13,618 bases of DNA from a virus (taxonomy: Duplodnaviria > Heunggongvirae > Uroviricota > Caudoviricetes): IMG/VR virus record IMGVR_UViG_2690316086_000023. One strand, written 5' to 3'. The position numbers were made by a program. Positions 1 to 3,000 of this stretch are shown piece by piece. Position 1 is the stretch's first letter, and the number at the start of each line of letters is the position of its first letter.

Positions 1-3000
1 CTACTGTTCTCCAGATTCTGATAATCCATGGCGAACAATAAGAACACTACAGCCGCTTTGCTGATTAGTTAGCCATAACGGTGAACTTTGCTGGATAGTT
101 TGAGAAATATCATTTCGCCGGAGGCTTATACACTGATTACTCAAGCTTACAACTGCAGGTGCATCAAAGCGCTCCGGACTATCAGTATCACGCATAGCTG
201 TAAACAGAATATAATCACTACCAGCCATATCATATTCCGTTTCTTTTAGTCTTAACAAGCCATCCTCTCTTGTAATATTAACTGTAATTAAAGATGTCTC
301 ATCATGATGGGCATAGCGCTGTGTATTAAGAATTAAATGCTCTTCCAGAAATTTTACAGGGTTACTACGTATTTCATTCATTATACACCGAAGCTCTGAA
401 CGATGCGGCACCAGAAAGTGCCCGGTATTTTGTGAAATAATACTACTTACCTTGATTGTTTTCTCTCCAGCTCATGAAAAATAACTCGCGTATTATATTG
501 TTTTACCAACCACAGGCCCCGAATGCCTGTGGTGTTTTTATATAAATTATCGGAAGTTAATATTGTTTCATTTGAAACATCTTAACTATCTTTTATAATA
601 AAGCTTCCCCTTGCAGGGTCATATTTACACTCTTCTGGTTTAACAATCATTGATGGGGTTATTGGAGCTCGTGTCAGAGGGTGAACTGAACCGTCATTAA
701 CCACGCGAGAAAGTGCATCAACATCAAATAAAGTGCATACTGCTGAACTATCTGAATTTTTGACAAATACCCCTTCTTCTGGTGTTTCCAGTATAATTGG
801 GCATCGAGTTGCATCAGAGGGACACTGGAGGCTCTCTGTATTAACAGAAAACTTACATTGATATATTTTATCCTGAGGAGTCACTTGCGATTGTGTTTCA
901 CCTGCATCTGATCCTGAAAGAATACTTAACATTCTCTCGCCAAGAGCTTGAGGCCCATTATTGAACCCTAAAAGCAATAATTCAGTAAATAATCCCCCAG
1001 TGCCATCGCTGGCCAGAAAGCGCCCATCTGTTGGACTATATTCAATTCTGACAGTTTCACCACCCATTGTAAATTCTCCACGCCCAGTGGCTGCAACTTG
1101 AGCACGAAGAACCTCCATTCCAAGATGGAACGAAGATGAATTAATATCTGAGGTTAATGGCATAATAAAGCTCCCTGTTTTAATTTGAACTCCAGACTTA
1201 AAGGTCCACAACAAATGTCATCCACAAATTTTTCCCTCGTCCCATCAGCACACCGAATTTGCAGCGGCCTCACCACGCACTGTATCGGCTTTTTATCCGC
1301 ACCCAGTATCACCACCTGCGTGATTACCCTGTCCTGCTCCGGAATAATGCCCTATTCGCTTGTTCTCAGAAATTGCCAGCAACCTTACACTACTTCTTTT
1401 GAGCCCATTTTTCGCCAGCCCTGAATACAGGAAAGTGTTAACTGTTTTTATGTTTACCCTCATCTCACTGGCGAGATGGGACGGACGCAACTGACGGTAG
1501 ATATATCCAAACATCACCACCATCTCTGACATCGTCAGTGCCCGTGCTTTTTTGTTCCAGGTCCACAATCTGTTACGCACAGCATTATGTATATCATGTC
1601 CCCCTTTCAACGCTTCCAGATCCAGCTGAATAAAACGGCGTCCCTGAAACATGCTGCGCATTAAATGGCCCAACTGACTATCACAGATTATTAACCAGGA
1701 TTCTTTACTATCCAGAATAACCCTGCGATTTTCCGGCATAAAAAATTCTTGAGCCAGAATTACACGGCATCCTTTCAGTAACAAACGCAAACCATATTCC
1801 AGATAATAATTACGCGTCGCAAGAATGAGCTTCATCGCCCTACTTCCCTGAACTACAGTAGTGTTCCATGCCTCGGTCGCAATCAGAATTTATGATTCCC
1901 CCTCCAGGGAACAAGATGGACACTCCCCTGCTCCTTAAAGGCATCCTTCACTCCATCGTATTAACATGTTTATTACTTCACACTCTAATAACAAACATCC
2001 CCCATACATGACAACAAAAACCGGAGCCGGCCTCCGGTTTTTTGTGAACCCGTCGGCTATTTCATCCCGCCAATATTTTCCCACGTCCCGTCAGCACGCA
2101 GGATTTGCAGCGGTCTTACCACACACTGTATCTGCTTTTTATCTGCATCCAGTATCACCACCTGTGTGATTACCCTGTCCTGCTCCGGAATAATACCATT
2201 CTCATCGGACTCCAGGATGTCTGCCGGCCCCAGTCGCAGTTGTGCTCAAAAAATCTCATAAATAGCGAAAACCCGCGAGGTCGCCGCCCCGTAACCTGTC
2301 GGATCGCCGGAAAGGACCCGTAAAATGATAATAATTATCATCTACATGTCACAACGTGCATCTACGCCATCAAACCACGTCAAATAATCAATTATGACGC
2401 AGGTATCGTATTAATTGATCTGCGTCAACTTAACGTAAAAACAACTTCAGACAATACAAATCAGCGACACTGAATACGGGGCAACCTCATGTCAACGAAG
2501 AACAGAACCCGCAGAACAACAACCCGCAACATCCGCTTTCCTAACCAAATGATTGAACAAATTAACATCGCTCTTGAGCAAAAAGGGTCTGGGAATTTCT
2601 CAGCCTGGGTCATTGAAGCCTGCCGTCGGAGACTAACGTCAGAAAAGAGAGCATATACATCAATCCAAAGTGATGATGGATGAACATCCCGGTTTCTTCC
2701 ACCATCGCACCGGAAAAGCGACTATGAGGGTAACCCTGCGTCTGTCAGCACAGTAAAACCCGGTGTGCATCGTTTTTGATTATTCCCGCACACTCACGCA
2801 GAAGGAATTCCCCGTCGGGCTACGGTCATGGTTAATGCGGGAATACGGCGACGATACAGCGCATAATGTGTCAGGCTTGAATACCTTTATCGAATCCCGG
2901 TAATAAAAACTGTCCCTGTCTCTCCAGACGTTCCAGCTTTGCAAGCAATTGAGGTTTTTTCGTTCTCCCCCAGCGATTGAGCAGACGGCCTGACATGCTG

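Follow-up and report, generated by a model that had tools for sequence, protein, structure and literature searches.

A probable internal deletion of about 23.3 kb joins cos to the effector locus in a defective lambdoid prophage of Escherichia coli O103 strain ML775

In E. coli O103 strain ML775 the cos region of a defective lambdoid prophage is followed directly by the effector cargo, an arrangement that is very probably the result of one internal deletion of approximately 23.3 kb. The comparison on which this rests is with an intact sister prophage, that of strain OkiPb01675 (here L006; NZ_AP042478.1, about 1150000–1196000), which occupies the same torS/torT site.

The window, i.e., the whole stretch of 13,618 nucleotides analysed, was a 100% match to the closed ML775 chromosome (NZ_CP193495.1), and there is little doubt that it represents the late end of a defective lambda-like prophage inserted between torS and torT. 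The annotation, which covered the full element and the DNA on both sides, placed int and xis beside torS and EspJ beside torT, with the host genes torT, torR and torCAD beyond EspJ, on the packaging side and outside the window. An ISEc12 insertion was observed in torR. Terminase and head genes were sought just beyond the window, and EspJ, torT, torR and torCAD were found instead; no terminase, capsid or tail genes were present in the annotated element or its flanks. The remnant is approximately 24 kb long and retains lambda-type exo/bet/gam, nin, Q and lysis genes. It resembles EHEC-type prophages in having integrase and excisionase genes at one end, in a site common to the OkiPb01675 and O121 RM8352 prophages, and in having type III secretion system (T3SS) effector genes in the stretch that separates the tail-fibre genes from the att end, as in intact relatives; a candidate 11-bp att core was also detected, which is weak evidence. 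The morphogenesis, immunity and replication modules were incomplete. Since the structural module is deleted, and N, cI, cro, O and P are absent, the element was categorized as a defective member of the effector-carrying lambdoid prophages.

The features around cos and the junction were as follows.

2290–2700, minus strand: lambda-like right-end block upstream of cos, 96% gapless identity to lambda 48092–48502
2489–2683, plus strand: ylcI/DUF3950 ORF within the lambda-like right-end block (PF13132)
2313–2319, minus strand: cosQ heptamer GGGTCCT, read from 2319 to 2313, identical to lambda and at the lambda spacing upstream of cosN
2278–2289, minus strand: cosN cohesive-end sequence GGGCGGCGACCT (left-end bp 1–12), a single exact match embedded in a gapless lambda-identical block
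2245–2277, minus strand: 33 nt kept after the cohesive end (left-end bp 13–45), stopping just short of the position of the TerS-binding site R3
2245–2246, no strand: deletion junction, a 2-bp AG common to both parental sequences (L006 19136–42444/6 missing)
2057–2246, minus strand: 3' remnant of the last tail-fibre gene (Phage_fiber_C, PF06820, E = 2e-35)
2016–2042 (approximate), minus strand: hairpin and U-run directly after the tail-fibre stop (MFE = -19.7 kcal/mol, z = -2.1)

A first-pass annotation of this sequence had reported a lambda-type cosN at 2278–2289 with lambda-like flanks, and both parts of that report were borne out. The cohesive-end sequence occurred once in the window, reading from 2289 to 2278 with 0 mismatches, when only about 0.04 chance matches were expected allowing ≤1 mismatch. 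The flanks (window 2305 to 2256) were identical to lambda 48487–48502 plus 1–34 at 50 of 50 positions, while the longer interval from 2700 to 2249 aligned without gaps to lambda 48092–48502 plus 1–41 (96.0%, 434/452). The heptamer corresponds to lambda cosQ, which lies at 48473–48479. The cosQ element is 7 bp long, highly conserved and required for termination (PMC4669245). With respect to cosN and cosQ, then, the site is a cos of the lambda type; terS and terL do not follow immediately downstream.

Similarity to lambda ends at approximately left-end bp 41 and the breakpoint falls at bp 45/46 (window 2245/2246), such that the missing stretch begins at bp 46, 2–4 bp before R3 of cosB; R3 occupies bp 50–65 in lambda and bp 48–60 in N15 (PMC9026076). 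From bp 46 onward the window consists of tail-fibre coding DNA, with scattered identity only to the cosB of lambda, L006 or another intact relative (L005), and no R3 was found at approximately bp 48–65, with or without I1, R2 and R1. The loss of lambda identity on the packaging side had been put forward as a sign of rearrangement. Identity does stop, at bp 41–45 or so, but the same is true of the intact relatives: L005 and L006 likewise cease to match lambda, or one another, from approximately bp 42–46 onward, as cosB is the component of cos that varies and sets specificity (PMC4669245). Therefore, loss of lambda identity at about +30–34 nt does not by itself indicate a deletion. The deletion starts, by chance, 4 nt past this natural mosaic boundary, which is why the first-pass conclusion was right nonetheless.

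That a large deletion brought the effector cargo up against the cos region was supported by alignment with the intact sister at torS/torT, in which cosB-terS-terL-portal-...-J-lom-tail fibre lies exactly between the sequences that abut in the window. Mapping of the breakpoints assigned the cos side to L006 up to 19135 and the tail side to L006 from 42445, an offset of 23,311 bp with the AG overlap, although the reference is a 98%-identical sister with insertions of its own (an Arc/Ant module) and the true loss may differ by a few kb. The same single gap was seen in a whole-locus blastn against L006. Relative to the sister, ML775 lacks cosB, terS, terL, the head and tail genes, J, lom and the first tail-fibre gene, and the loss extends into codon 27 of the last tail-fibre gene. 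The junction sequence is ...TTTATGAGATTTTTTGAG/CACAACTGCG..., where the slash marks the breakpoint; it contains no IS, and no repeat beyond the 2-bp overlap, which identifies the event as illegitimate (non-homologous) recombination. Each breakpoint is only a few bases from a module boundary (on one side, where the conserved cosQ-cosN block ends; on the other, where the Phage_fiber_C domain begins), and this was treated as coincidence. A terminase-made break was considered as the cause of the deletion and rejected, with cosN and 33 bp on the packaged side being intact.

On the tail side of 2245/2246 the window matched the 3' end of a tail-fibre gene from a prophage, and the effector locus that follows that gene, with 99.9% identity. 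The gene remnant noted after cos in the first-pass annotation is thus the Phage_fiber_C domain: one base of codon 27, codons 28–89 and the stop of an 89-codon gene, the full 89-aa version of which is present in L006. No ATG, GTG or TTG start is left in the remnant, and the RefSeq CDS here (2057–2239) begins at a CTG codon. The terminator said to follow it was apparent on folding, as the hairpin and U-run listed above, but not to a consensus terminator scan of 1800–2500, which made no call. The hairpin is, as a weak call, the native terminator-like element of the tail-fibre gene, and its region is also found in intact prophages at 99.9% identity.

The junction was present in 1 of 5,426 complete E. 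coli genomes (ML775 only) and had no match in metagenome or viral contig collections. Being known from a single assembly, it could reflect an artefact, whereby a 23-kb structural module really present in ML775 was collapsed or mis-joined; near-identical lambdoid prophages are abundant in EHEC and hard to assemble, and a 4.2-kb query matched 14 places in ML775. However, mis-joins arise inside repeats and the two sides of the junction have only 2 bp in common. Synteny between torS and torT is otherwise preserved on each side of the join, the chromosome record is closed, and an artefact was judged highly improbable. Recombination between prophages was considered very unlikely as an alternative to deletion. 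It would derive the int-to-cos and tail-fibre-to-EspJ parts from two phages through an illegitimate exchange, for instance between an incoming phage and an older remnant at torS/torT. The effector side is indeed 99.9% identical to O121 prophages whose lysis and cos-proximal region differs, the lysis side has its nearest relatives in O111, O145 and bovine strains, and the prophage is visibly mosaic, its Q region having been replaced. Yet a single OkiPb01675 prophage at this site contains the two halves (98% identity) separated by the structural module, and so one deletion within a prophage is enough to explain the locus; both routes would lead to the same end product, with the same functional consequences.

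The order of elements at cos also invites comparison with phage-inducible satellites. PICI/EcCI cos sites have a phage-like cosQ and cosN followed by sequence without a match to any phage cosB (PMC9026076, PMC6739421), and the ML775 locus might be a helper-dependent element of this kind, with a non-phage 'cosB' made functional by a redirecting protein. This is scarcely credible given what surrounds the site. PICIs carry an rpp gene and a replication and regulation module of their own, whereas the ML775 element has neither; after cos there is no rpp/terS-like gene but a start-less tail-fibre fragment and terminator, and the gene set (exo/bet/gam, nin, Q and lysis genes) is of the lambda type. 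A PICI or cos-type satellite was rejected on these grounds, as neither rpp (encoding a TerS-like winged-HTH protein) nor the int-alpA-pri/rep layout was found and lysis genes were present. Moreover, the junction represents a deletion seen in one strain, in a prophage that is ordinary in other respects.

In addition to the internal deletion, the favoured explanation, a second lesion beside IS1203 took out N, cI, cro, O and P. What is left is an orphan cosQ-cosN, with Q and holin-lysozyme-Rz upstream and the tail-fibre terminator and NleG/EspJ downstream. From lambda genetics, the initiation of packaging is expected to require that cosB-bound TerS places TerL on cosN, and cosB deletion results in poor and inaccurate nicking (PMC4669245, PMC9026076). 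Because cosB has been lost, the ML775 cos would be unable to initiate packaging with its own or a helper terminase, and could act at most as a downstream termination site. The view that the element is not self-packaging accords with the absence of both cosB and terminase. The 24-kb remnant would be immobile as a phage, and may persist because the effector genes are self-contained cargo that do not need the phage life cycle.

Other roles for the orphan site were also evaluated. Some O157 prophages without head and packaging genes still enter particles via complementation, although cosB loss was not shown there (PMC2669165). The orphan cos as a terminator for a neighbouring phage was rejected at the ML775 locus: there is no lambda-type cosN in the 72 kb upstream, and the next prophage (at tRNA-Ser, approximately 71 kb away) has an HK97-like HNH/TerS/TerL system. 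It was thought most improbable that the orphan cosQ-cosN is recognised as a downstream (termination) site, or nicked in situ, by co-resident lambdoid terminases, or that retention of Q-lysis-cos is selected. If it were so recognised or nicked, the orphan cos would be a phage-inducible chromosomal break point, or a packaging stop shaping which host and effector DNA is transduced; if selection were involved, the survival of Q-lysis-cos beside effector loci in both ML775 and O111:H8 8E would not be chance decay.

Upstream of cos, the following late genes were identified.

6578–7267, minus strand: late antiterminator Q gene (PF06323, E = 9e-92; annotation agrees)
3638–4784, minus strand: lysis cassette (holin 4569–4784, lysozyme 4072–4569, Rz 3638–4075)
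2871–3488, minus strand: Rha-family regulator gene between the lysis cassette and cos (PF09669 and PF10549)

The Q and lysis ORFs (holin, PF04971; lysozyme, PF00959; Rz, PF03245) were all full-length, and the annotation agreed for the lysis genes as well. The proposal that Q-controlled lysis genes and cargo were kept holds to the extent that these ORFs are intact and the effectors present. However, the early region is not: N, cI, cro, O and P are absent from the ML775 element, their loss adjoining IS1203, and the whole-locus blastn showed L006 2262–9546, approximately 7 kb of early region, replaced by IS1203 in ML775. With the early region missing, normal induction of the late operon is doubtful.

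The effector locus on the other side of the junction comprised four features.

1225–1351, no strand: second, degenerate tail-fibre C-terminal DNA copy, a direct repeat of 2071–2197 (88% identity)
1293–1835, minus strand: 180-aa ORF, its 3' end entering the second tail-fibre C-terminal fragment
582–1163, minus strand: NleG-family type III secretion effector gene (PF06416, E = 1e-41; annotation agrees)
1–381, minus strand: hypothetical gene of the effector locus (from annotation), with EspJ and then torT just outside the window

The NleG-like effector was recognised correctly in the first-pass annotation. The 180-aa ORF, described there as Psr-like, was a different matter, since Psr regulators are of the AraC/XylS type (PMC10877973) and the ORF had no AraC-type HTH, no Pfam match even at E ≤ 10, and none in NCBIfam or PADLOC; its only matches to PDB sequences were non-significant ones to kinases (E of approximately 0.07). 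The label was rejected as unsupported. RefSeq annotates only a pseudogene fragment in the region of the ORF, its DNA homologues in other genomes are annotated as 'hypothetical protein' only, and a pseudogene 'phage tail fiber C-terminal domain' is annotated at 1225–1351. The ORF at 1–381 had no family match.

Among intact relatives, OkiPb01675 and O121 RM8352 share the order cos-terS-terL-portal-...-J-lom-tail fibre N-tail fibre C-(effector locus)-torT. OkiPb01675 resembles ML775 in its cosQ-cosN block, Rha, lysis cassette, nin region and NleG/EspJ behind the tail-fibre genes, the relatives being 98–99.9% identical. It differs in keeping cosB, terS, terL, the head and tail genes and the immunity and replication genes, where ML775 is without 23.3 kb of late and approximately 7 kb of early DNA. 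Its TerS, TerL and tail-fibre genes matched PF07471, PF05876/PF20454 and PF08400/PF06820, respectively. Megablast matches of this family to sequenced phages end at the cosQ-cosN block; for its cosB/terS there was a weak match to N15 gene 1 (76% over 128 nt), a similar one in an unannotated Enterobacter phage, and no others among sequenced phages.

Decayed relatives were also compared. In EHEC, lambdoid prophages are as a rule defective, with deletions and IS insertions (PMC2669165), and the Sp prophages of EHEC O157 Sakai (Asadulghani et al. 2009, PMC2669165) likewise combine T3SS cargo with deletions and IS in morphogenesis, packaging and regulation genes, with many siblings in the same genome; the ML775 deletion differs in being strain-private and in starting inside cos, between cosN and cosB. 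A parallel in layout is a sister remnant in O111:H8 strain 8E, adjoining yfaA/DUF1175, which runs from int to Q-lysis-Rha-ylcI-cos and then to NleG/NleA with the structural module gone. Its loss is bounded by IS1203, it keeps cosB and the first 107 or so codons of terS, which IS1203 truncates, and its integration site and effector set are unlike those of ML775; it is an independent parallel in which the structural module was lost through IS1203. Laboratory lambda deletion prophages, e.g., MF532 DeltaSA441[Nu1-attR...] (PMC4669245), are also truncated just beyond cos. Such attL-to-cos deletion prophages are passive 'downstream cos' substrates, termination needing only cosQ and cosN (PMC4669245), but in these the deletion extends rightwards from Nu1 into host DNA and the construct is placed in tandem after a complete prophage, whereas ML775 is also without cosB.

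The ML775 case is ordinary prophage decay and has little meaning beyond bookkeeping. For annotation pipelines, the 60-codon 'tail fibre C-terminal' CDS in the window is a start-less remnant. A cos call alone is no evidence of a packageable element, cosB rather than cosN being the informative part of cos. The locus provides a base-pair-resolved example of an effector-carrying lambdoid prophage fixed as an immobile virulence island, in which the phage-building genes were lost and the cargo kept.

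Over its first 4.2 kb the window was 100% identical to one record only, NZ_CP193495.1 (E. coli O103 strain ML775, chromosome), in which window base 1 is position 3216309. The minus strand corresponded to the late direction of the phage, and the principal genes were as follows:

6578–7267, minus strand: Q, first in the late order, which runs from high to low coordinates
4784–3638, minus strand: holin, lysozyme and Rz
3488–2871, minus strand: Rha-family gene
7742–8701, plus strand: LpxR lipid A deacylase gene (PF09982)

Below the Rha gene, in descending order, were a ylcI/DUF3950 ORF and cos; next came a short piece of a gene with a hairpin behind it, and last a 180-aa ORF, NleG and a hypothetical gene. 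The NleG-like effector locus that the first-pass annotation placed near cos was therefore present, with EspJ just beyond the window; past EspJ were the host genes torT, torR and torCAD, rather than terminase or head genes. The opposite boundary of the element was formed by xis and int, next to torS. No terminase, capsid or tail protein was encoded, and the remnant measured approximately 24 kb between copies of a candidate 11-bp att core, which is weak evidence; this is about half of the packageable length, by the lambda packaging window. Host torR was split in ML775 by an ISEc12 (IS21-family) insertion outside the window (14285–17557 of L003, the ML775 locus with flanks), which could help to recognise the strain's close relatives.

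The window contained a single copy of GGGCGGCGACCT, on the minus strand at 2289–2278, against a chance expectation of about 0.04 matches with one mismatch or fewer. Window 2305–2256 was identical to lambda 48487–48502 plus 1–34 at 50 of 50 positions, and gapless alignment of window 2700–2249 with lambda 48092–48502 plus 1–41 gave 96.0% identity; the cosQ heptamer GGGTCCT lay at 2319–2313. Judging from these alignments, the proposed lambda-type cosN at 2278–2289, with its lambda-like flanks, is correctly called and positioned, far beyond chance. On the packaging side, 33 nt were retained past the cohesive end (left-end bp 13–45). Past bp 45 the sequence gave way to the 3' portion of a tail-fibre gene, and ML775 DNA from bp 46 on bore no resemblance to the cosB of lambda or of two intact relatives, L005 and L006.

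Window 1–2246 matched many EHEC genomes at 99.6–99.9%, and these continued into a complete tail-fibre gene; from 2245 upward many genomes matched and then ran into cosB and terS. The two halves were joined only in ML775, one of 5,426 complete genomes, whether a 4.2-kb query or a 301-nt junction query was used, and nothing in the metagenome and viral contig collections matched a 42-nt junction string. Strain OkiPb01675 carried, also at torS/torT, a sister prophage (L006) with the order lysis-Rha-ylcI-cos-terS-terL-head-tail joining-portal-protease-decoration-capsid and, later, tape measure-...-J-lom-tail fibre N-tail fibre C-(ORF, NleG, hypothetical, EspJ)-torT; in O121 RM8352 this site held a prophage with an identical order of genes in its late half. 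Base-by-base comparison showed that the cos side of the window corresponded to L006 up to and including 19135, and the tail side to L006 from 42445 on, an offset of 23,311 bp, with the AG dinucleotide at window 2246–2245 common to both sides of the join. In whole-locus blastn this was the sole gap in the late region. Thus, the structural module of an intact nleG-carrying prophage lay between the two sequences joined in ML775, and the suspected large deletion or recombination fusing effector cargo to cos was borne out.

Loss of lambda identity past about 34 nt, which had been noted at first pass, was indeed observed (identity extended to about bp 41–45), but it is not diagnostic of deletion, because intact relatives lost it at the same place, where lambda, L005 and L006 mutually diverged. 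Megablast matches between sequenced lambdoid phages and the sister prophage ended at L006 19131, 4 nt short of the breakpoint; on this comparison, that position is a natural mosaic boundary between conserved cosQ-cosN and specificity-determining cosB. What is diagnostic is the piece of tail-fibre gene, together with the absence of terminase.

The distal breakpoint was at codon 27 of the last tail-fibre gene (89 codons), and the gene remnant recognised earlier was its surviving C-terminal piece, with a Phage_fiber_C domain (PF06820, E 2e-35). No ATG, GTG or TTG start was found in the remnant frame; RefSeq gives 2057–2239 (minus strand) as an intact 60-aa CDS with a CTG start (WP_001358682.1), which is probably a dead fragment. 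The reported terminator stood as a hairpin with a U-run (about 2016–2042) 3' of the stop codon, although a consensus terminator scan made no call. Since it lies inside window 1–2246, near-identical in relatives whose structural module is still in place, the hairpin is native rather than a product of rearrangement and belongs to the tail-fibre gene as its own terminator-like element. Tail-fibre C-terminal coding DNA also formed a 127-nt direct repeat (1225–1351 and 2071–2197, 88% identity) on both sides of the 180-aa ORF. Phage_fiber_C also occurred in the sister's first tail-fibre gene, and this module may be a recombination anchor for effector-cargo swaps. The 180-aa ORF itself (1293–1835, minus strand) was present in about 115 genomes at 99% identity or more, while RefSeq has just a 150-nt pseudogene fragment there. 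NCBIfam, PADLOC and Pfam (with hits admitted up to E = 10) gave nothing for it, and its matches among PDB sequences were all non-significant (kinase, E ~0.07); given that Psr proteins are AraC/XylS-type (PMC10877973), the label 'Psr-like' was unsupported.

No IS, repeat or homology was found at the join, just the 2-bp overlap, which is close to chance level; the sequence carries the signature of illegitimate recombination, of end-joining or slippage type. A break made by terminase was ruled out as the cause, cosN and 33 bp of the packaged side being intact. An exchange between two phages would have the same outcome and is a minor alternative; because synteny with the intact sister holds for the host DNA on either side and for the two ends of the prophage, one deletion within one prophage is the most economical history.

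In place of the sister's Ral, N, cI, cro, cII, O, P, ren, NinB and NinE, ML775 had IS1203 and an Nmad5 gene fragment (L003 33487–35102; window 13487 onward and beyond). The Q region (6511–8916) also differed, with a different Q allele and the LpxR gene: full Q and YlcG were followed by LpxR and a 72-nt remnant of another Q allele (8845–8916). Of the Q-controlled lysis genes thought to be kept, the Q and lysis ORFs were intact, but the usual route to their expression is, from gene content, gone. A 590-aa ORF (11294–13066, plus strand), antisense within the nin region and conserved in the sister (L006 9973–11745), had no match in Pfam or PADLOC; it may have a defence role or be a moron.

Among lambda-like phages, packaging needs cosN plus cosB to start and cosQ plus cosN to terminate, and when cosB is deleted cosN is nicked poorly and inaccurately (PMC4669245, PMC9026076). 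The critical site for TerS, R3, occupies bp 50–65 in lambda and bp 48–60 in N15 (PMC9026076). The ML775 site, as read here, is an orphan cosQ-cosN. By lambda genetics it would be unable to start packaging, with or without a helper, because ML775 departs at bp 46, before R3, and encodes no virion or terminase proteins; this agrees with the earlier view that the element is probably not self-packaging. At best it could be used as a downstream stop. No lambda-type cosN was found in the 72 kb upstream, and the next prophage there was HK97-like. That prophage, at tRNA-Ser about 45–72 kb upstream of cos (22304–50000 of L007, the upstream ML775 DNA), carried EspK cargo and an HK97-like HNH/TerS/TerL packaging module; its portal gene was frameshifted, and ISCro1 had inserted between the tail-fibre genes. 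Any activity of orphan cosQ-cosN sites in genomes rich in lambdoid prophages is very improbable.

A PICI-like satellite was rejected, since rpp is absent and the genes are of lambda type. In EHEC it is the norm for lambdoid prophages to be defective through deletions and IS insertions and yet to carry effector genes (PMC2669165). The remnant in O111:H8 strain 8E (L008 18380–20790) comprised cos, terS cut by IS1203 after about 107 codons, then NleG and NleA, followed by host DNA at an integration site different from that of ML775. Both had lost the structural module while keeping Q-lysis-cos and effectors, the loss in 8E being bounded by IS1203; 8E is a second, independent case, so such loss has recurred, and through more than one mechanism. 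Private to its strain, the ML775 allele is a new example of an already known kind of decay, and its biology is ordinary.
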